From Methanomassiliicoccaceae archaeon (GTDB lineage Archaea; Thermoplasmatota; Thermoplasmata; Methanomassiliicoccales; UBA472): DNA of 64,000 nt. The stretch is taken from the NCBI GenBank assembly GCA_963789555.1, contig CAWBKY010000007.1, forward strand, positions 101,999-165,998. The letters run 5' to 3'. Below, one piece after another: positions 5,354-26,793 of this stretch; the stretch's first letter is position 1; each line of letters starts with the position of its first letter. The notes under the pieces are model-generated. The model had not been told where the DNA came from. It made no database searches and was given only the letters and a program-made list of their open reading frames with translations. The position numbers and the translations under genes were made by a program.

Positions 5354-6822
5354 TCAGCTGAACTTATCCTTTTTCGCCAGGTAGGCATCATAGCTGAGGA
5401 TCAGTTCCTTGGCGGCGAACAGCTCGTCCACCCTCTGCCTCGAGGTGGAGTGCGGGGCGCCCTTTACCAGCTCTGGGTCCTCCTCGGCGATGGCGATCAT
5501 GGCGTCAGCGAAGAGGTCAAGCTCGAACTTGGTCTCCGTCTCGGTGGGCTCGATCATCAACGCCTCCGGGACCAGGGCAGGGAAGTAGATGGTAGGCGAC
5601 ATGAAGCCGTAGTCCAAAAGACGCTTGGCCACGTCCAGGGCGCGTACGTCCTTCTCCATCGTCAGACGTTTCGCGCTCACCACGAACTCATGCTTTCGCA
5701 GCTCGCCATAGGGCAGATCGTAGACACCTTGCAACCTCTGCCTCAGGTAGTTGGAGTTGAGCACGGCGCGTTGGGACACCTCCCTCAGACCGTCCCCTCC
5801 GTTGCGGAGGATGTAGGCGTAGGCCCGCACCAGAACGGCGAAGTTGCCATAGAAGGAGCGCACCTTCCCTATACTGTCCTGGCGATCGAATTCGAGCGCG
5901 TATCGGTCTCCCGTCTTGACCACCCTCGGCACGGGCAGGAACGGCTCCAGGTGGGCCTTGACCCCCACCGGTCCCGCGCCTGGCCCTCCGCCGCCATGCG
6001 GCGTGGCGAACGTCTTGTGCAGGTTGAAGTGCACGATGTCGAAGTCCATCAGGCCCGGCGAGGTGTGCCCCAGGATGGCGTTGAAGTTGGCGCCATCATA
6101 GTAGAGGAGGGCACCTGCGCCATGGACCAGCTTGGCCACCTCTCGGATGCGGCCCTCGAATATCCCTAGGGTGTTGGGGTTGGTGATCATGAAGGCGGCG
6201 GTGCGCGCCGAAAGGGCGGACCTGAGCGCCCCAAGGTCGACGCATCCGTCCGCGTCCGAGGGTATCTCAATGACATTGTAGCCAGCCATGGCCGCGCTGG
6301 CGGGATTGGTGCCATGGGCCGCGTCCGGGACGATGACCTCGATGCGCTTGTCCCCCCGTTTGGCGTGGTAGGCCTTGATGATCAGCATCCCGTGAACTCG
6401 CCTTGAGCCCCGGCGGCCGGTTGCAACGTGACCGCATCCATGCCGGAGATCTTGCACAACGCCCTGTTCCAGCTCGTACATCAGGCGCAGGGAGCCTTGC
6501 ACGGTTCCTCCTCCTGGTACGGGTGCACCGACGTGACCGAAGGTAGGGCGGCCAACTTGGTCGCAGTACTTTGGGATTGTACTTCATGGTGCACGAGCCC
6601 AGGGGGTAGAGGCCGTTGTCCACGCCGAAGTTCATCTGGGACAGGTTTGCGTAGTGCTTCACCACCGCCCTTTCGGGCAGGTTGGGCAGGCAGGCCCTGT
6701 GCGGGACATCCCTTCTGGAAGGTCCATGTTCGTGGTCCGGTGCTTCCGGTGAGGTAGAGGTCGTTCTCCCCGTTCAGTTCGAAGACCAACTGGTCATCAT
6801 AGCGGGCCTGGCGGTACATCAT
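5354..6822 (-). pseudogene. gcvPB: glycine dehydrogenase (decarboxylating) subunit 2, reading frame broken at least 5 times
   Basis: Long C-terminal ORF has [14 protein letters not shown]...HFNLHKTFATPHGGGGPGAGPVG (PLP-lysine region). N-terminal pieces [49 protein letters not shown] and [24 protein letters not shown] sit in different frames. Confidence 0.8.
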
Positions 6823-9847: not shown

Positions 9848-9924
9848 GGGCCCGTAGCTCAGCTAGGTTGAGCGATCGGCTCTTAACCGATAGGCCGTGG
9901 GTTCGAATCCCACCGGGCCCGCCA
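9848..9924 (+). tRNA. tRNA-Lys (anticodon CUU), genomically encoded CCA
   Basis: Manual cloverleaf: acceptor GGGCCCG/CGGGCCC, D-arm GCTC..GAGC, anticodon stem ATCGG/CCGAT with loop CTCTTAA (anticodon CTT), T-arm GTGGG-TTCGAAT-CCCAC, discriminator G, then CCA. Confidence 0.9.
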
Positions 9925-12823: not shown

Positions 12824-13526
12824 TTTATTTCCTCCAGTCCTTTATTCGATCAGTGAGATCGGAATCCCATTGGTCGGATGTATGAACAATGAATGAACGA
12901 ATTATAAAATGGTATGGATATTACCCTGGATATGAAGGATACGTCTTTATTTCATGGCCGATCAAAGGCATCCGAAAAAGTTTCTATTAATCATGGCGAC
13001 TGCAACCCCGGTTCTTATCTTAATTTCGATCAATATCTGAGTACATCCTTGTCGAGATAGACCACCATAGTCAATGGATCGATGGAGGCATCGTAGATAC
13101 TATCCCAATCTCTAACCTGTACTTTGTCGAGGCTATCATCTTCCATCGGATTCTTCCGAGCTTAAATCCTTTGAACGATACTCAAAAACCGATGGGCATA
13201 GCCCTCTAGTCATTATCCGTTACAAAGATCAATGCTCAGAGGTCCAATCCTACAAATATATTCTCGGGGGATTTAATTATAATATCAAAATTGACAATAA
13301 TAATGGAGAGTAATGGCTTCTTGAGCATTATCATTAGTGACACGATTTTATCCATGCAATGTGAGAGCAGGACCCGAATGTTACAAGATGGAAATCATTA
13401 AATCGTTCCCTTACAAGTTGTAATACCAACAGACCCTCTTCTTACACCAGGTTCCATTCGATGTTACCAATGACGGATCCTATTAGGGGGATATAGGGGT
13501 GGAGAACTTGAATATTTGAAAAAAAG

Positions 13527-16500
13527 ATGCTAACAGTGATCATGATCGTGGCTGTCGCGGTCATGATGATCATACCGGGTTTGGCCACCATAACGGTCGA
13601 ACCGAGTACTTCTACGATCGAGAAAACAAAGATAGGCGCAAGCCTTAGTTGGGTAATCAACGCTCCGACGGAGCCACTCAACGTGTCGGCCGATCCAGGG
13701 AACGGGTTCATCTGGTTGTGGTGGGACCACCCCCTCAGTCAGGGGAGCGACCTGATCAAGAATTACACCATCTTTAGAGGCACGACGTCAGGGCGGCGAA
13801 GATATGGTGACACCGATCGCTGAAGTAACAGTAGGTGTCAACTATTACAACGACACGGATGTCACGAACGATGCCCCCTATTATTACATATTGAAGGCCC
13901 AGAGCGATGCAGGCGTCAGCATATCCTCTGCCGAGGTCTCTGCGACCCCGAACGACTCGGGATCACCGCCTAGTGGACCTCTGAACCTTGTCGCCACGAA
14001 CCTGTATTATTCCGCTCAACTGAACTGGTCAGCCCCATCAAATGCTGGGACCACACCGGTTAGGATGTTTGATATCTATCGTAATCCGTATCCACCAGGT
14101 ATGCCCCTGACCGATGAGGTCACATCCGGGGGATGGGTCACTGGGTATGAGGATTCCTATGTCCTTCCAGGTGAAGAATACAACTATACGGTAAGAGCCA
14201 TCAACAGCTTTGGGGCCGGCTCAACGAACGTCACTGTCCGTGTGGCTGGGACCGGGCTCTATCCCGAGGTACCAGAGAACCTGACTGCATCAGGCGGTAA
14301 TTGCTCCGTGGAGTTGAATTGGGACGATCCATCAAATCCATCTGAATCTGGAATCTCCCGATATGACATCTACCGTTCCTTGACCTCTAGTTCAGGTTTT
14401 GTTCTTATCGGTAATTCGTCGACCTATTTCGGAATGTTAATACCATTCTATACCGATTTCAACCTGATCAATGGTCAGACCTACTATTACAAGGTGAAAG
14501 CAGTCAACACGAAAGGCGAAAGCTCTTTTTCGAACGAGGCATCTGCGACACCAAATCTGCAGGCACCCCACGTTTTTGCCTACCCAGGGAATTCTCGGGT
14601 TCTCATCATGTGGAGTCCGGTCCAGAATGCCACAGGTTACGACATTTTTAAGATATGAGACGCCGGGTACAGAAACTTTAAAGGAAACAACTGGAAAATA
14701 TGTCAATTACTGGCTCGATAATTTGACGACCAATGGCGTCGCCTTACTTCTATAAAGTAAAGGCTAAATTTGACGCAACAGATGGACCATTTTCAAATGA
14801 GGCGACCGCCACCCCTTATGTTGGAAGCCCTCCAACGGCACCAACGAACATGATCGCCACGCCGGATGGTTCTAGTGTAGAAATGAATATCCCAAAAAGC
14901 AACGATACCAACATCTTGATAGGATATGAGATATACCGCGGTGACAGCTCAGGATCCGAAGTTCTCATCGAGAACGTGACATTCTACAACTCGTTATACT
15001 GGTACATGTCTCCTTATTATACGGTATCAGTATCAAGGACATTACAATGGTGTGGATAGTGTCACATACCATTATACTGTGAAGCTCCGTCAATCTATTC
15101 GGGACTAGCGGGTTCTCGAACGAGGTCTCTTCCTTCGCCAGTCCCACCGGGGATGTACCTTTGGGCGATATCACCCTGAGCGCCACGGCAGGTACTGCCA
15201 ACGTAACGTTGTCCTGGAGCAACCCATCGTACATGGGTACGGCCAACCTGCTGGATTATACCATTATGCGGGATAACGGGTCAGGCTGGAACTATGTCAA
15301 CTTCATGTTTGCCCCGGCAGGAACTCAGACATGGGTGGACACATATGTCACATCTGGTGTGACTTATCATTACATGGTCATTGTTGGGAATAATTATGGC
15401 GATGCTGTGAAAGGTTCCAATGTGGCCACCGCCTCAATCTCTGGGTCTGCGGTGGAACCAAGCAAACCATTGAACCTCCATGCCGAGCCAGGTAACAATC
15501 ATGTGCAGCTTAGCTGGGACCCTCCAGCGAACAATGGTGGTTCAGCAGTAACCAGTTACACGGTGCTCAGGGGTACTCCTCCGGATCCATAACCACTGTG
15601 ATCACAACCACTACCGGGGCAGGTACGACCTTTGATGATACGACCGCATTGAACGGTCAAACATACTGGTACGCGGTCAAGGCCACCAACGCTCAGGGCA
15701 CAGGACCAGCCTCTGACGCGACCTCGGCGGTACCTGCGGCCCCATCCGGACCACCAGGCAAGCCCGAAGGACTGGTGGCGACCCCAGGCAACGCCCTGGT
15801 GGTGTTGGGATGGAACGCGCCGAGCAGTAGTGGCAGTTCAGCCATCACCAGGTATGACATATTCCGTGGGAACAGCTCGGCGAACATAAGCACGACCGTA
15901 CTGGGAAGCGTCAACGCCGCCTCGGCCTTGACATACACCGATAGTTCCCTCATAAATGGACAAGAATACTGGTACGCGGTGAAGGCGGTCAACACCCAGG
16001 GTTCTGGCCTTGCCTCTGACCCGGCCCATGCGGTCCCGAGCGCCACCGGGACGGTGCCTGGTGCTCCCACCTCGGTCACCGCCGTCGGCGGTCCAGGCTA
16101 CATATTGGTCTCCTGGGCGGCACCATCGAATGTCGGCTCAGGAGTGAGCAACTACCTGGTGTTCCGCGCCACCACATCGGGCGGTCAGGGGAGCACAGCG
16201 CTCGCCAACTTGACCGGGAGCTTGCTCCAGTACAACGATACCTCAGCCGTTCCGGGTACGCCCTACTTCTATAAGGTGATGGCATGGAACTCATATGGTG
16301 ATGGTGCGTCCTCAGCCGAGGTAAATGCCACCGCTGCAGCCACTGGGCTACCTTCGAACCCGACCAGCCTCACGGCGACGCCAGATAAGGGCAAGGTCAT
16401 CATCACCTGGGGCGCGCCGACATCTGACGGAGGGTCAGCCATAACTGGTTACAATGTGTTGCGTGGGTCCAGCGCTTCAACGTTGGTAGTGATCGGCAAC

Positions 16501-16743
16501 ACCACCGCGAGCATCCGCAGCTTCACCGATGAGGACGTCGAGGCAGGGACGACCTATTTCTACAGTGTCGTGGCGGTGAACGCCAATGGGAACAGCGCCC
16601 AACCGACACCGGTTAGCGCTGTCCCGGAATCGTCGGATGGCGGTAACGGAACCGACAACACCTGGCTCTACGTAGGTGCTGGCATTGCCGCCGTGGCGGT
16701 CATCGGAGGGGCGGCCTACTTCCTCATGAGGAAGAAGAAGTGA
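13527..16743 (+). CDS. giant cell-surface protein: signal peptide, 10-11 tandem fibronectin type III domains, C-terminal TM anchor; 6 apparent frame breaks
   Basis: N-terminus MLTVIMIVAVAVMMIIPGLA. Recurring ~95-aa unit P..P.nL.a..G...v.LsW..P...G.s.It.Y.i.R......................D....nG..YyY.V.A.N..G.g..S. C-terminus WLYVGAGIAAVAVIGGAAYFLMRKKK. Pieces are ORFs 13527, 13804, 14733, 15161 and 15598. Breaks at ~13792, ~14650, ~14742, ~15030, ~15084 and ~15571. Confidence 0.8.
13650..16620 (+). repeat. tandem array of divergent FN3-domain coding repeats (protein-level repeat, ~285 nt period)
   Basis: The repeat is visible in translation (for example NGQTYWYAVKATNAQG, NGQEYWYAVKAVNTQG, GTPYFYKVMAWNSYG, GTTYFYSVVAVNANG). 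The DNA copies are diverged and I saw no long identical stretches. Confidence 0.7.
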
Positions 16744-17047
16744 GCCGATCTGTCAAACCATTTCCCAAAATCTCTTCTCCCCCCGGGGGCGGTCTTTTAA
16801 CCGTCCGAACCCGGGCATCCTTTTCTTCTGACCCGACCTTGAGGATGGTCAATCAGGTTTAGGACCAACGAAACCGCTTTCAAGAGGTTGATGGACCAGC
16901 CCTCGCTCGCCATCCCATGATACAACCAGAAGTCCAACTGATGATGAAGGACGACGCATGAAAATGATGGTTAAGAGATTCATTGAGACCAAATATGCTC
17001 TCGATCTAAGCAGCAATCCTGATTATGGTCCAGGGCATACAGGCATC

Positions 17048-19633: not shown

Positions 19634-19701
19634 ATTATATATTTTTGACCCGTCGCTAAGAGCCTAAGGAGCATATTCATCCCCAATACAAGGTGAGGAC
19701 A

Positions 19702-20802
19702 ATGGCAGACACAATGAACCACATCGAGAGGGCAATGGCCTCGATCATGAACCAGCCGGTCGACAGGCTGTCCACCTACCCCATCGCCTGCGGCGTCAAC
19801 CGCAGGCTGGTGGGCGACGGCAAGATGTCCTATCCCGACTGGGCCAACGACCCTAAGAAGTTCGCCGAGGCCGCCATCGCCGGCTACAGGTACTTCGACT
19901 GGGACTGGTACTTCGGCCTCATGGACCTGTCCGTCATGGCCGGCGACATCGGTTGCCACGTGCGCATGGACGACCAGAACACCCCGTTCGTGGACAAGAC
20001 CATCATCCACAACCCGGAGGACTATGAGAAGCTGCACGTCCCGGACGTGCACAAGGGCCGCTGCGGCGTCATCATCGAGGGCACCAAGATCTTCTCGGAG
20101 AAGCTGAAGAACGACATCATCACCTCCGGCTTCATCGAGGGCCCGCTGCTCGCGCTGACGCAGACCGCCGGCGCGGAGAAGGTGTTCATGGACATGATCA
20201 ACAACCGGTCCGCCGTGCACAAGGGCCTGGAGACCATGACCCAGTTCGACGTCGACTTCACCAACGCCTTCGCCACCACCACCGCCCCCGGCCTGTGCTG
20301 GGACTACCTGTGGGGCAACTACTCCTGCCTGGGCGACAAGGAGTACGACGAGTTCGAGGGCCAGCACAAGTACGCCGGCAAGCTGAACGAGCTGACCACC
20401 AAGGTAGGCAAGGCCTTCTGCATACACAACTGCGCCGACCTGCCCCACCTGGACAGCCAGATCAAGGCCTTCAAGCCAGTGATCTACAGCATGGCCTACT
20501 ACCCGCTCATCCCCGGAAGCCCATCGCCCAAGGAGGCCATCGGCAAGGGCTACGCGGACAGCTGCCTGCTCGCCGGGCAGATCGACCCCCAGCTCTTCGT
20601 GCGCGGCACCGTGGAGAAGATGGAGGCCACCACCATGAAGCTGATCCAGGAAGTGAAGACGGCGCTGTGCCAGCGCGGCCTGCACTCCCGGTACGTGATC
20701 GCTTCCGGTTGCGAGGTCCCGCCCGCCGTCAGCACCAAGATCGAGAACATCAAGGCCTGCGTCGACACCGTGAAGAAGTACGGCCAGATCCAGTGCGCTT
20801 AA
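19702..20802 (+). CDS. methylcobamide:CoM methyltransferase family (MT2; MtaA/MtbA-like, URO-D fold)
   Basis: URO-D-family length and layout. Candidate zinc ligands in CIHNCADL (H-x-C) and IASGCEVP. GGTGAGG lies just upstream of the ATG at 19702 (the ORF track opens at GTG 19693). Confidence 0.7.
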   Translation: MADTMNHIERAMASIMNQPVDRLSTYPIACGVNRRLVGDGKMSYPDWANDPKKFAEAAIAGYRYFDWDWYFGLMDLSVMAGDIGCHVRMDDQNTPFVDKTIIHNPEDYEKLHVPDVHKGRCGVIIEGTKIFSEKLKNDIITSGFIEGPLLALTQTAGAEKVFMDMINNRSAVHKGLETMTQFDVDFTNAFATTTAPGLCWDYLWGNYSCLGDKEYDEFEGQHKYAGKLNELTTKVGKAFCIHNCADLPHLDSQIKAFKPVIYSMAYYPLIPGSPSPKEAIGKGYADSCLLAGQIDPQLFVRGTVEKMEATTMKLIQEVKTALCQRGLHSRYVIASGCEVPPAVSTKIENIKACVDTVKKYGQIQCA

Positions 20803-20840: not shown

Positions 20841-21742
20841 ACACGGACCTATCGACATTAGGATCTTCTATCTTGGCGAGGAACGAACGAATGATGTCCA
20901 GATAATCGCTGGGGTTCTCCAATTGAGGATTGTGCGACGCATCCTTCACAATCTCCAGCTCAGAGCCAGGCACGAGCCGGTGATAGTACCTGGTGCTCTC
21001 CGGGCAGGCATCGTCATACTCGCCGCAGATGAAAAGGGTGGGAACGTCGATCCTGAGCCAACTGATCGGTGCAATCGAAGTTTTGCATATAACCGGTTAT
21101 CTTGAAGTCCCTCCAACCCAGGAAATGGTCCGCGATCTCCCGAGAGCTCTTCGAATGCGCTCTTTTCATGCACTCAGGAGGCGGCTCCACCCGGCAAAGG
21201 TGCCGTCGGTTGTACGCTCGGACCGCGCGTTTGAACTCAGGCCTGGAGGTATCGCCTGACACCTCGCCCATGCGTACCGCCTCCCTGAGCTCTAAAGGCA
21301 TCTGTTCCAGATATCTTCGCATGTCATCGTAGGAGCGCGGTATGCTCATGGAAGGGCTGGAAAGGACCATGCTCTTTACCCCTTGAGGCCTCAAGGACGC
21401 ATAATAGTTCACCACCAGGATGCTCCCCCAGGAATGTCCGAACAGATGGACCTCTTCCAGGCCGAGGTGTTCCCGGATCAACACCACCTCTTCCACGAAT
21501 CTCTCCAGCGTCCATAGGGATAGGTCGCTTGACCGGTCCGAGTTGCCGCAACCGAGCTGGTCGTAGAAGATGATCGGCCTCTCCTCGCCGAGCACCTGCA
21601 TCGGCTCAAGGTAATCGTGGGGGAAACCGGGGCCGCCATGAACGACCAGCAGGGGAGCGCCCGGTCCATTTCCGACCACCTTGTACCAAACGCTCCCTCC
21701 GGTGACCTGAACGCGACCCTCACCCGATCTCGGTCCACTCAT
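20839..21742 (-). CDS. alpha/beta hydrolase, proline iminopeptidase family; apparent 1-nt frame break near 21050
   Basis: VVHGGPGFPHDY, nucleophile elbow GHSWGS. After LAQ the frame fails. My translation one frame over gives IDVPTLFICGEYDDACPESTRYYHRLVPGSELEIVKDASHNPQLENP, the expected Asp/His C-terminal part. Confidence 0.75.
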
Positions 21743-21878
21743 CGCGACAGCATCTGATTAGGTCACGATAAGATGTTCGGACGGTCCCAATTTCCTGCGA
21801 ACATCAAACGGTCTTTGGTCCGACCGCTCCAACCTATATATCAGGCGTTACTATTGCCATCATAACGAAGGCAGGCCC

Positions 21879-22643
21879 ATGATCAACGTCTATTTCGTCG
21901 GCACAGCGGGAAGCGGGAAGAGCACCCTGGTATACGCGTTCCAACAGTGGATGACGCTGCAGGGCCTGGACACGATAACGGTGAACCTCGACCCCGGGGC
22001 GGAGCAGATACCATACGAGCCAGACGTCGATATCAGGGACTGGGTCAAGGTCGAGGAGGTCATGAGGGATTACGGGCTGGGCCCGAACGGGGCGCAGATC
22101 GTGTGCGCGGACCTCATGGCCTTGAACTCCAAGGAGCTGGTCGAGACAGTGGAGAAGTTCCGCACCAACTACGTTCTCATCGATACCCCGGGCCAGATCG
22201 AGCTCTTCGCCTTCAGGCAGTCCAGCCAGGTGATCATAGACGCCTTGGGCAGGGACCAATCCTTCTTGGCATTCCTCTCCGACCCAGCATTGGCCAGGAC
22301 CGCTTCGGGATATGTCTCGATGCTCATGCTCTGCGCCACCGTGCACTTCCGTTTCAACATCCCCTTCATCAACCTGCTCTCCAAGTCCGACACCTTGGCC
22401 GAGAAGGACCTGCTCCGCGTGCTCGACTGGTCGCAGGAGCCTGACGCATTATACGATGGCCTGATGCAGGAGCAGGCATCCAGCCGGAGCGTGCTCTCCA
22501 ACGAGCTTTTCTATGCCCTGCAGAACATCGGGGTGTACCGGGAGTTGACCCCGGTATCGAGCGAGATCCCCTTTGGTCTGGAGGAATTGTACAACATCAT
22601 CCAACAGTCATATGAGGGAGGAGAGGACCTCAGCAGGGATTGA
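21879..22643 (+). CDS. GPN-loop GTPase
   Basis: VGTAGSGKST P-loop, GLGPNGA (GPN motif), LIDTPGQIELF. Size and layout match the archaeal GPN-loop GTPases. CCTATATATC lies ~40 nt upstream. Confidence 0.85.
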   Translation: MINVYFVGTAGSGKSTLVYAFQQWMTLQGLDTITVNLDPGAEQIPYEPDVDIRDWVKVEEVMRDYGLGPNGAQIVCADLMALNSKELVETVEKFRTNYVLIDTPGQIELFAFRQSSQVIIDALGRDQSFLAFLSDPALARTASGYVSMLMLCATVHFRFNIPFINLLSKSDTLAEKDLLRVLDWSQEPDALYDGLMQEQASSRSVLSNELFYALQNIGVYRELTPVSSEIPFGLEELYNIIQQSYEGGEDLSRD

Positions 22644-22685
22644 GGCGCCAACGAGCGATATGACCGTTCGTCAACAGGTGAGCAT

Positions 22686-22856
22686 ATGTGGCCTTGGAAG
22701 AAGGAGGGTAAGGTGGAGAGGAGGAAGGTGGGGACATACCACTGCCCCAAATGCAACTCCACGAACATCGAACAGGAGGTGGCCCTGACCGGATACATCA
22801 TCATCGGTCGTTCCCTGGTCTACCACTGTCACGATTGCGAGTATCGAGGGATGATC
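22686..22856 (+). pseudogene. small zinc-ribbon protein gene lacking its 3' end and stop codon
   Basis: AGGTGAG SD-like sequence then [60 protein letters not shown] has two CxxC pairs. Beyond ~22856 the open frame is simply antisense to PAN with no plausible protein sequence. Confidence 0.45.
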
Positions 22857-23588
22857 GATGCTGGGGGACTTATCCTTGGCCATCTCGAACAGCTCGCGCA
22901 CCAGGCGGGCACCCTCTCCGATGTACTTCTGCACCAGCTCGGACCCGACCATGCGGATGAAGGTGGCGTTGGTCTGGTGGGCCACCGCTTTGGCGAGCAG
23001 GGTCTTCCCCGTTCCCGGGGGTCCGACCAGCAGCACCCCTTTCGGAGGCTCGATCCCCACGCGCTTGTACAGCTCAGGCCGGAGCAGTGGGTCCTCCACC
23101 GCCTCCCGGATCTCTCGTATCTGCTCCTCCAGGCCGCCGATGTCGTTATAGCTGATGGCGGGCTTCTCCACGATCTCCGCCCCGATGACGATGGGGTCCA
23201 AGGAGGCCGGCAGCACCGACATCACTGCCAAGGTCTGCTTGTTGAGAGCGACGCGCGCGCCGACGGTTATGTCCTCTGTAGGCACGTACTCCGAGGTGGA
23301 AACGATGAAGTCCGGGCCGGTCGAGCTCTTGACGATGACCCGGCCATCCACAAGGACGTCCTTTATGGAACCGATGATGAGCGGCGGGGACTTGAGGCGC
23401 TCCATCTCCGAGCGCATCCTCTTGATCTCCTTCTGCAGGCGGAATAGCTCGCTCTCGACATAGCGCTTCTCGCCTTCCACCCGCCTTACCTCTTCCAATA
23501 GCTCGGCGTTCTGTCTTTCCAGATGCTCCAGTTTCTGTTTCATCTCTTTGTAAAGATAATCGTCGAGCTGCTCATCGGTCACTATCAC
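22857..23588 (-). pseudogene. pan: proteasome-activating nucleotidase, truncated after ~244 aa (no Walker B, sensor or C-terminal motif)
   Basis: Coiled coil, OB region and [61 protein letters not shown] are intact. The expected IFIDEIDA... does not follow in any of the three minus frames. GTG start, with TTTAATAAAG ~20 nt upstream. Confidence 0.8.
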
Positions 23589-23803
23589 ACCTCGTCAATT
23601 CCACTTTATTAAAGGGTTTGCTATTTTATCCTTTCGTGTTATTTCACAAACGATAGCATCCTTTCTGGACCCGGGTCAGGTCCAGCCGCATCGCTCGTTC
23701 ATTTCTCCGAATGGAAAATTAACGTTCACAAGCCCTCCCTGCGTCCCGGCCCGGCTAGAAATTGAAAAAGATTATTAAAGTCGGGCCCGTTAGATGCGAC
23801 CGG

Positions 23804-24304
23804 GTGAACGACTTGATCTGCGAGCTCTGTGGAAAGGAAACGACCAGGACCGACCCAGTGCAAATCGAGGGAACGACCTTGCGCGTTTGCAAGGATTGCT
23901 CCAAGTTCGGGGACCAGGCCAAGCAAGGGGCGAAGGAGCAACCGAGCAAGATCATCATCCAGTCGCGCCTGGAGAACCGGGAGCGGCGTATGAAGTCGAA
24001 GGACGTGTACGAGTCGGAGACGGTGAACGAACTGGCCGACGACTATCCTGAGCGCATCCGCCACGCCAGGGAGCAACATGGGTGGAACCAGGAAGAGCTG
24101 GCCCAGAAGATGAGCGAGAAGCACAGCCTGGTGCAGAAGGTGGAGCGGGGCGACATCAAGCCCGACGACGTCCTGGTGAAGAAGTTCGAGAAGACCTTGG
24201 GGGTCAGCCTGATGGAGAAGGTCTCCCTCGTCAAGCCGGAGAAGAAGGCGGTGGCGGGAAAGGGCATGACGCTGGAGGACTTCATCAAGACCAGCAAGAA
24301 GTGA
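23804..24304 (+). CDS. mbf1: archaeal MBF1 (zinc ribbon plus XRE-type HTH)
   Basis: ICELCGKE...LRVCKDCSKFG zinc ribbon, then IRHAREQHGWNQEELAQKMSEKHSLVQKVERGDIKP HTH. The ORF opens at 23762. I prefer GTG 23804 or TTG 23813 because ATTATTAAAG (23771-23780) would then be a TATA box for a leaderless mRNA. Confidence 0.8.
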   Translation: MNDLICELCGKETTRTDPVQIEGTTLRVCKDCSKFGDQAKQGAKEQPSKIIIQSRLENRERRMKSKDVYESETVNELADDYPERIRHAREQHGWNQEELAQKMSEKHSLVQKVERGDIKPDDVLVKKFEKTLGVSLMEKVSLVKPEKKAVAGKGMTLEDFIKTSKK

Positions 24305-24310
24305 TGCCCC

Positions 24311-24881
24311 TCACTTCTTGAGAATTTCCTCTCTAGTGATGTCATAATACTTGGAGACGTCCATCCCCAGGTCCCTCGCCACGATCAGCGCGGCCACTTC
24401 GGGCACCACCCCAAAGCGCTCCTGCAGCTTGTTGATGCGGGAGACCACGTCCTTCTTCTTGATCTGGGTCTTCTGTGAGATGTCCTCGATGAGAACGGTA
24501 AAAAGTGGTACGTCAGCGACGGGGGCGGTACGCGTCTCTTGAGTCGGTCAAGGGCTGGGGCTCCTTGACCCCCTCGTTCTTCGAGGTCGGAGCGGCCCCG
24601 ATCTCCTTGAGCACTTCGCTGGAGGGCTGGTAGTTCAGAGGTATGTCGATGGAGCGGTAATCGAAAGCGGGCTGGAGCATCCCCTCCTTGGTGATGAGCA
24701 GTCCGCTGGACTTGGCCGCGTCCAGGATCCTCTGGGCATCCTTGGCCTCGATCTTCGGGGCCTTCCCGGGGTCGCTCCAGCGCATATTGAAGAGCAAGGT
24801 GTTCAGGAACTCCTTCTCGGAGACCAGGTTCTTGCCCTTGCGCTTATAGACGATGGCGACCGTCCTCTCTAGCTCACCCAT
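24311..24881 (-). CDS. DUF2240-like protein; apparent frame break near 24540
   Basis: ORF 24513..24881 (ELERTVAIVYKRKGKNLVSEKEFLNTLLFNMRWSDPGKAPKIEAKDAQRILDAAKSSGLL) stops early. My translation one frame over continues VPLFTVLIEDISQKTQIKKKDVVSRINKLQERFGVVPEVAALIVARDLGMDV...EEILKK to a stop at 24311. The family call is from memory. Confidence 0.45.
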
Positions 24882-25152: not shown

Positions 25153-26793
25153 ATGGCAATGGGAAACACACCGATACTGATCCTCAGGGAGGGCACAAAG
25201 CGCGACAGGGGCAAGGACGCCCAGTTCAACAACATCCAGGCGGCCAGGGCCATCGCTGACGCGGTTCGCAGCACCCTCGGACCCCGGGGCATGGACAAAA
25301 TGCTCGTGGATTCCATGGGGGACGTAACGATCACCAACGATGGGGTAACCATCCTGAAGGAGATCGATGTCGACCACCCCGCCGCCAAGATGCTGGTGGA
25401 GGTCGCCAAGACCCAGGATGAGCAGTGCGGAGATGGGACCACCACCGCCGTCGTTCTGGCCGGCGAGCTGTTGAAGAAGTCCGTCGACCTGGTCGACGCC
25501 AACGTACACCCCACCATAATCACCAACGGTTACAGATTGGCCGCCATCAAGGCCCTGGAGGTAATGGACTCTGTGGCCATGGACGTCGGGCCCAACGACA
25601 GGGAGACCCTGGTCAAGATCGCCCAGACCGCCATGATGAGCAAGCAGGTGGTCGGCTCCAAGGAGCTGATGGGCGACATATCCGTCGACGCGGTCCGCCG
25701 CGTCGCCGAGAAGGTCAGCGGCAAGTACGTCGTTGACATGGACAACATCCAGGTGGTCAAGAAGACCGGCGGTTCCATGGACGACACCACCCTCATCGAG
25801 GGCATCATCGTCGACAAGGAACCGGTACACCCGGCCATGCCCCGCCGCATCGAGAAGGCCAAGATCGCCCTGCTCGACGCCGCTCTGGAGATCAAGAAGA
25901 CCGAGACCGACGCCAAGATCGAGATAACCGACCCCATGCAGATGCAGGCATTCCTCGACGAGGAGGAGAAGTATCTGCGCAAGATCGTGGAGACCATCAA
26001 GGCCTCGGGCGCCAACGCCGTCTTCTGCCAGAAGGGCATCGACGACCTGGTGCAGCACTTCCTCGCCAAGGAGAAGATCTATGCCGCTCGCCGCGTCAAG
26101 AAGAGCGACATGGAGAAGCTGGCCAAGGCCACCGGAGCCCAACTGATCACCAAGATCGACGAGCTCAACGCCGACGACCTGGGCAAGGCCGCCCTGTTGG
26201 AGGTCAAGAAGATCCAGGACGAGGAGATGACCTTCGTCACCGGTTGCAAGAACCCCAAGGCCCTGAGCATCCTGATCCGGGCCGGGACCCAGCACGTGGT
26301 CGATGAGATCGAGCGCTCCCTTGACGACGCCATGTCCGTGGTCGCCGTGGCCATCGAGGAAGGCCGCATGCTGACCGGCGGCGGTTCCACCGCTGTCGAG
26401 CTGGCCATGAGGCTTCGCGAGTACTCCGCCACCGTCGGCGGGCGCGAGCAGATCGCCATCGACGCCTTCGCATCCGCCATGGAGGTCATCCCGACCGCCC
26501 TGGCCGAGAACGCTGGCCTCGACCCGATCGACATCCTCATCGAGCTGCGCAAGGCCCACAAGACCGGCAAGACCCACTTCGGCCTGAACGTGTACTCCGG
26601 AAAGGTGGAGGACATGCTCAAGCTGAACGTCCTTGAGCCCATCTGCGTCGGAAGGCAGGCCATCATGTCCGCCACCGACGCTGCCGTCATGATCCTCAGG
26701 ATCGATGACGTGATCGCCTCCAAGGGCGGTCCTGGCATGGGCGGAATGGGCGGAATGGGCGGCGGAATGCCTGGCGCGGGCGAAGACGACTAA
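25153..26793 (+). CDS. ths: thermosome subunit (group II chaperonin)
   Basis: [66 protein letters not shown]-terminal [10 protein letters not shown] tail encoded by ATGGGCGGA repeats. GGAGGT lies 8 nt upstream of the ATG. Confidence 0.95.

Follow-up and report, generated by a model that had tools for sequence, protein, structure and literature searches.

The proteasomal ATPase PAN (TIGR01242/PRK03992; Rpt1–6 orthologous group) is absent from the Thermoplasmata, where the 20S proteasome is activated by Cdc48/VAT (Forouzan et al. 2012, PMC3493965). CDC48 is present in all of the 81 archaeal genomes surveyed, and Haloferax volcanii tolerates the deletion of both of its PAN genes under normal growth conditions (PMC3493965). 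For the C terminus, an HbYX-type pattern has been defined as [LVIMGAPFYW][FY]x (PMC3493965). The locus described here was found in a contig of a Methanomassiliicoccaceae archaeon and lies in a stretch of 64 kb that was analyzed as a whole (the window). It shares with the PAN family an N-terminal portion of 244 residues, in which it is 99–100% identical to full-length PAN proteins from sister Methanomassiliicoccaceae MAGs, and differs from that family in lacking Walker B, the remainder of the AAA core, the lid (PF17862), and the HbYX-type VMFA at the C terminus. Should the allele be real, this locus would be without a functional PAN, as in the PAN-less, Cdc48/VAT-using Thermoplasma acidophilum of the same phylum. 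The absence of PAN in the Thermoplasmatales is, however, ancient and lineage-wide, whereas the loss observed here is found in one assembly, the relatives of which keep PAN under purifying selection; a Thermoplasma-like, PAN-less reading would be limited to one strain because every relative examined keeps PAN. The panA panB knock-outs of H. volcanii offer a second parallel, likewise a tolerated null of the proteasomal ATPase, from which the window allele would differ in being spontaneous and environmental, with three accessory genes lost alongside.

The PAN-like open reading frame (ORF) occupies positions 22671..23588 of the minus strand and encodes 305 aa, of which the first 244 codons (23588..22857, with the GTG at 23588 taken as the first; gene callers begin two codons later) are PAN-like and the following 61 (22671..22856) form an out-of-frame tail of junk codons, without PAN similarity and antisense to a zinc-ribbon gene, that ends with the stop codon at 22671. 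BLAST identity, Pfam, and TIGR01242 identified the first part as a PAN remnant comprising the coiled coil, the OB domain, and AAA positions 1–60, including Walker A (GPPGTGKT). Aligned with the intact 403-aa PAN of a relative (P0002), the window ORF exhibited 100% amino-acid identity over residues 1–242, and this identity ends at ...SPSI (window 22857), just before Walker B, where the relatives go on with VFIDELD and the window reads DHPSILAIV. The first-pass annotation had described PAN as reading perfectly for 244 aa up to ...AKDKSPSI at about 22857, and the comparison confirmed this, since the ORF matches the full-length PAN of relatives up to that point and is unrelated to it afterwards. 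A public protein of 303 aa (P0001), a singleton known from one contig of 264,277 bp, is identical to the window ORF with the junk tail included, and the junction therefore belongs to the deposited assembly.

The domain profiles delimited the truncation in the same way. Prot_ATP_ID_OB_C (PF16450) was matched at residues 72–127 of the remnant (E=1e-13), and the N-terminal coiled coil and OB fold are thus in place. The Pfam AAA profile (PF00004) was covered only at positions 1–60 of 131, leaving the AAA module incomplete, and the AAA lid (PF17862), which spans residues 339–381 in P0002, was detected neither in the window ORF by Pfam nor in the 64-kb window by tblastn. Against TIGR01242 (NCBIfam), the window ORF covered profile positions 1–210 of 362 with 324.8 bits, below the 500-bit cut-off, which the intact P0002 exceeded with 588.2 bits. 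The C terminus of the window ORF (...PHMLTC) belongs to the junk tail and does not conform to the HbYX-type 20S-docking pattern, into which the ...GVMFA of the relatives fits. Because the product has lost Walker B (VFIDELD), sensor-1, the arginine fingers, the lid, and the HbYX-type motif at its C terminus (...VMFA in the relatives), the truncated PAN is predicted to be a null allele, unable to hydrolyse ATP or to open the 20S gate. Judged from these features, the PAN of the window is a truncated allele and not a working member of TIGR01242, a new kind of PAN, or a conserved short form.

A second truncation was observed on the plus strand, where an ORF of 253 aa (22686..23447) lies behind a Shine-Dalgarno-like GGTGA motif. 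Its codons 1–57 (22686..22856) are those of an 82-aa zinc-ribbon protein, here called ZnR1, the L002 copy of which (from one of the relatives introduced below) matched the window over residues 1–57 with 91% in tblastn; from 22857 to 23447, the ORF list has this frame reading through antisense to PAN for 196 junk codons before a stop. That a zinc-ribbon ORF preceded by such a motif starts at 22686 and runs antisense to PAN had been noticed beforehand, and the match to the 82-aa protein of the relatives up to 22856 corroborates it. Both CxxC pairs (CPKC and CHDC) are retained in the remnant, and the last 25 codons, encoding an acidic tail, are gone together with the stop codon. Provided that the allele is real, the ZnR1 product would keep both CxxC pairs and have its acidic tail exchanged for 196 antisense-derived residues. 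Full-length ZnR1 ORFs of 82–87 aa were found in L002 and L008. In L002 (6483–7017), ZnR1 and its tandem paralog ZnR2 (82 and 77 aa) each display a basic N-terminus (MWPWKKEGK and MWFRKGRKKEEK, respectively), a CPxC...CxxC arrangement, and an acidic tail. The Pfam matches of both paralogs to DUF7838 were weak and below the cut-off, and the fused 253-aa ORF produced no match to an NCBIfam family at E<=1e-5.

Related Methanomassiliicoccaceae contigs are collinear with the window at ~84–98% nucleotide identity (~90–98% without L007), and six of them span the interval between the two breakpoints. These relatives comprise the Nanopore MAG MFD05674.bin.2.86, a GTDB species representative (L001, the same as L005); Nanopore assembly contigs of 1.42 Mb (L002, the same as L022), 410 kb (L003, the same as L023), and 40 kb (L004); the more divergent MFD02979.bin.2.96 (L007; about 83–89%); MFD00905.bin.2.116, a GTDB species representative with a deletion of its own at the locus (L008); and a short-read MAG (L006) with a full PAN, whose contig ends inside the 381-aa gene described below and does not span the interval. 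A full-length PAN of 403 aa was found in every close relative, four GTDB species representatives and the short-read MAG included, with the exception of L008, in which a 1-nt insertion (CT[G]CAG at L008 ~5909) shifts the frame at about codon 303. The same short PAN-like gene in relatives, which the first-pass annotation had put forward as an observation that would speak against its reading, was not encountered in any of them, and a conserved short PAN isoform is ruled out, as all close PAN homologs measure 390–423 aa if fragments truncated at contig ends are left aside.

Both truncations meet at window 22856/22857, where the BLAST blocks of L001–L005, L022, and L023 abut or overlap at a deletion junction (22856..22857, no strand assigned) with a 2-bp microhomology (CG); the left block of L008 stops at 22852. 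Relative to these orthologs and L008, the window displays a single collinear pair of breakpoints, as anticipated for a deletion pseudogene. The comparison of the syntenic locus, recommended at the outset for sizing the missing segment, yielded an interval of 2,118–2,127 bp in L001/L005, L002/L022, L003/L023, and L004. In L008 the interval is only ~1.3 kb because this contig bears its own independent deletion of ~1.0 kb there (6220–6660), internal to the 381-aa gene, of which only residues 346–381 are left. L007 has every gene of the interval, its left junction being unaligned by BLAST. The lost segment contains PAN codons 245–405 (GTG numbering), a 381-aa gene (p381), ZnR2, and the final 25 codons of ZnR1. 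The p381 product combines a squalene-hopene-cyclase-C-like (SQHop_cyclase_C) alpha/alpha-toroid domain (PF13243, 41 bits) with a membrane helix at its C terminus, and ZnR2, the 77-aa zinc-ribbon paralog of ZnR1, lies entirely within the segment. With these two genes between them, PAN and ZnR1 were therefore not immediate neighbors before the loss. The proposal of the first-pass annotation that one deletion cut both convergent genes stands insofar as both ends of the deletion are the two truncation points; its size estimate does not, the loss amounting to 2.12 kb rather than ~0.5 kb and including two complete genes besides.

Searches of the 64-kb window with tblastn and blastn recovered no copy of the missing segment, no C-terminal half of PAN, as had been stated earlier for the minus frames, and no other AAA ATPase. 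An intein, a split gene, and a programmed rearrangement are ruled out, with the PAN C-terminal half, p381, and ZnR2 nowhere in the window and the sequence past the break being plain ZnR1 antisense. At the breakpoints themselves, the left flank of the relatives reads ...GGGATGRTC/GTCTATAAC and the right flank ...GATGAAMA/CGATGCTGGGG (the slash marking the break), and the window reads ...GGGATGATCGATGCTGGGG, so that the dinucleotide CG alone is common to both ends. No direct or inverted repeats of at least 9 nt bracket the breakpoints in L002 or L003. The structure of the junction thus appears to be that of an illegitimate, microhomology-level end-join. Repeat-mediated assembly collapse and homologous recombination are disfavored by the 2 bp in common and the lack of a bracketing repeat of at least 9 nt; the assembly collapse contemplated in the first-pass annotation is accordingly unlikely as far as it would proceed through repeats, and survives in the form of a read- or graph-level artefact, which is weighed below.

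The genes on either side of the junction anchor the synteny. To the left, an intact GPN-loop GTPase gene (gpn; PF03029, Pfam, 209 bits) occupies 21879..22643 of the plus strand as a conserved neighbor, and its protein is identical to that encoded on L003 and L004, both of which have intact loci. To the right, an intact gene for an MBF1-like HTH regulator (mbf1; HVO_2718/HTH_3 by Pfam; 23813..24304, plus strand) is divergent from PAN, and the synteny around it is kept in all relatives, out to the Methanomicrobiales. In L012, a locus from the Methanomethylophilaceae, only 10 nt separate the tails of gpn and pan, no gene lies between them, and mbf1 is again divergent from pan; ZnR1-ZnR2-p381 therefore represents an accessory cassette inserted, in the genus of the window, between the conserved convergent gpn and pan. 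Strain-variable content was also seen ~6 kb to the left of the junction, where a window island of ~4.07 kb (12930–16998), replaced by 125–163 bp in L022 and L023, encodes two proteins with fibronectin-type-III/Ig-like domains (13804–14658 and 15598–16743). The p381 deletion of L008 and this island show that structural microdiversity is normal in the region, and a deletion that began in the cassette and overran into pan is plausible as a biological accident. In this respect the window resembles the strain-specific cassette deletions of MAG populations, such as the partial loss in L008, the cassette-free Methanomethylophilaceae, and the nearby island, and differs from them in that its deletion overran into a conserved housekeeping gene. 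The strain-variable island itself, the products of which are putative surface proteins, adjoins a sulfatase gene and a radical-SAM/SPASM gene.

Similarity to the relatives was mosaic over window 20900–24800. To the left of the junction L003 is nearest (98.3%, compared with 89.7% for L008), and to the right L008 is nearest (98.0%, compared with 96.2% for L003), the switch being situated near the junction and not demonstrably at it. This pattern suggests either that co-occurring lineages recombine often or that strains are mixed in the assembly. A recombination breakpoint as the cause of the junction was also considered, and no causal link is claimed, the similarity being mosaic throughout the region and L008 being divergent from every contig on the left.

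The coding constraint on PAN was assessed over its first 242 codons, in which pairs of sequences from the group differ by 14–36 synonymous and 0–2 non-synonymous codon differences, a ratio that indicates strong purifying selection on PAN in this group. The remnant in the window has three private substitutions, all synonymous and too few to carry statistical weight, and its 726 nt are free of indels and stops. The relaxed selection or decay that would mark a deletion pseudogene was not observed in it, which leaves an extremely recent event or a non-biological one, and there is no sign of a lineage evolving without PAN.

Taking these observations together, we lean toward a genuine and very recent deletion allele, carried by some or all of the sampled population, as the somewhat probable explanation. 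One stretch of 2.12 kb would have been lost by illegitimate end-joining at the 2-bp microhomology (CG), within the strain-variable ZnR1-ZnR2-p381 cassette between the conserved convergent gpn and pan. The deletion would have overrun the cassette in both directions, leaving 57 codons of ZnR1 and removing PAN from just before Walker B, in a very recent event confined to one strain or to a subpopulation of it, in which proteasome activation would pass to Cdc48/VAT, as in Thermoplasma. The 64-kb window itself contains no Cdc48 gene.

The explanation that competes most seriously with this one is an artefact, in which the organism has an intact gpn-ZnR1-ZnR2-p381-pan locus and the gap arose from an aberrant Nanopore read or a wrong metaFlye graph path that small-scale polishing left unrepaired; we regard it as a substantial possibility, if short of probable. 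Its strength lies in the origin of the data. The related contigs are Nanopore MAGs of the Microflora Danica long-read project, which were produced from Nanopore reads with Flye (--meta --nano-hq) and one Medaka round, with read coverage required to be at least 8 in large datasets (PMC12313526), and the source contig of the window is very probably part of the same set. In a three-way alignment of 16.6 kb, we counted ~20 private small indels in the window (~1 per 0.8 kb), 16 in L022, and 24 in L023, all at different sites. In the window, private 1-nt indels at 21055, ~24545, 26987, and 27080 break, close to the junction, the genes for an alpha/beta-hydrolase (21055), a DUF2240 protein (~24545), and GrpE (split over three frames), and others are located at 20523, 24895, and 27415, among further positions; those of L022 and L023 split DnaK, the thermosome, and DnaJ in the respective contigs. 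These small frameshifts look like Nanopore consensus errors rather than pseudogenes, and with consensus indels this frequent, disrupted genes in the window contig are not to be taken at face value. The rate of private indels also suggests low coverage, at which one read can set the structure of a contig, and the junction falls where the nearest relative switches from L003 to L008 and strains differ structurally, in a bubble-prone region. Several of the insertions in the window lie outside homopolymers (CCT[G]AGC, TTGA[G]TCG, CCG[A]CAAG, and CCG[A]CAGG), possibly as a result of modification-related basecalling errors.

An artefact would also agree with the lack of independent sightings of the allele and with a remnant free of decay. 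The junction had no match in JGI metagenome contigs, whether queried with a 45-nt or, subsequently, with a 25-nt degenerate pattern, and the protein cluster of P0001 has one member from one contig. Among 5.8 billion protein clusters, the junction peptide retrieved one candidate that had words in common with the query and none that scored, a negative of little weight because even P0001 itself did not score. The allele is thus known from one assembly. The form of the lesion nevertheless weighs against an artefact. It is a base-precise deletion of 2.1 kb at the same locus and in the same orientation, between non-repeated sequences, whereas the documented errors of the contig are indels of 1–6 nt and hence of another class, and the other 23 kb compared are collinear apart from the one ordinary accessory island. 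Ligation chimeras join unrelated fragments, and a same-locus, orientation-keeping, clean junction without repeats argues against random chimeric ligation as it does against repeat collapse. To our knowledge, no common artefact mechanism readily generates a base-precise, same-locus deletion of 2.1 kb between non-repeated sequences.

Far less probable is a rearrangement by which the 2.1-kb segment, or a complete pan, would reside elsewhere in the same genome, so that a functional PAN is kept. The portion of the genome examined is 64 kb, and some archaea possess two PAN genes, as exemplified by the additional PAN-like match close by in the Methanomicrobiales loci L010 and L011; these points leave this reading some room. 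We consider it very unlikely, given that the window bears no trace of the segment or of a second AAA ATPase, that no close relative has a second PAN within 10 kb, and that PAN function would not be regained from a relocated 3' half lacking the 5' half. That the short PAN-like product has been retained for a function of its own, such as that of an ATP-independent chaperone ring, is barely credible: the ORF of the remnant is unbroken, its start region is preserved, and its private substitutions are synonymous, and both hexamer formation and chaperone-like activity have been reported for isolated PAN N-domains, but no relative has such a form, the same short allele was not found in JGI contigs or protein clusters, and the truncation point lies midway through the AAA alpha/beta core (Pfam position 60 of 131), with 61 antisense-derived junk residues added.

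Returning to the recent deletion allele, a PAN-null Methanomassiliicoccaceae strain would, by analogy, probably be viable on Cdc48 alone, because CDC48 occurs in all 81 genomes surveyed, Thermoplasma uses Cdc48, and Haloferax tolerates the loss of PAN. The stronger claim, that the deletion is real and also the dominant allele in a strain of free-living Methanomassiliicoccaceae, caught as a natural PAN knock-out just after its origin, we hold to be rather unlikely. Were it to apply, the locus would show in situ that Cdc48 alone sustains proteasome function, in a PAN-retaining sister order of the Thermoplasmatales, and it would illustrate how the loss in the Thermoplasmatales might have started, as collateral damage from the deletion of a neighboring cassette. 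A deletion that is simply real would add one more strain-level loss of function, the dispensability of PAN in the presence of Cdc48 being already known from the Haloferax knock-outs and the PAN-less lineages. As an artefact, the locus would call for caution, since long-read MAGs at roughly Q30 consensus can mimic housekeeping pseudogenes through frameshifts and perhaps through kilobase-scale gaps; the absence of a pathway inferred from a single long-read MAG of such quality is unsafe. The PAN locus of this draft MAG bears either an ordinary deletion allele or an artefact mimicking one, with little meaning beyond annotation.

Concerning the wider surroundings, the locus is flanked by a gene for a URO-D-family (MtaA/MtbA-like) methyltransferase (19693–20802) and by an intact thermosome gene encoding 546 aa (25153–26793), and the sole tRNA gene of the window is a tRNA-Lys(CTT) at 9848–9924.
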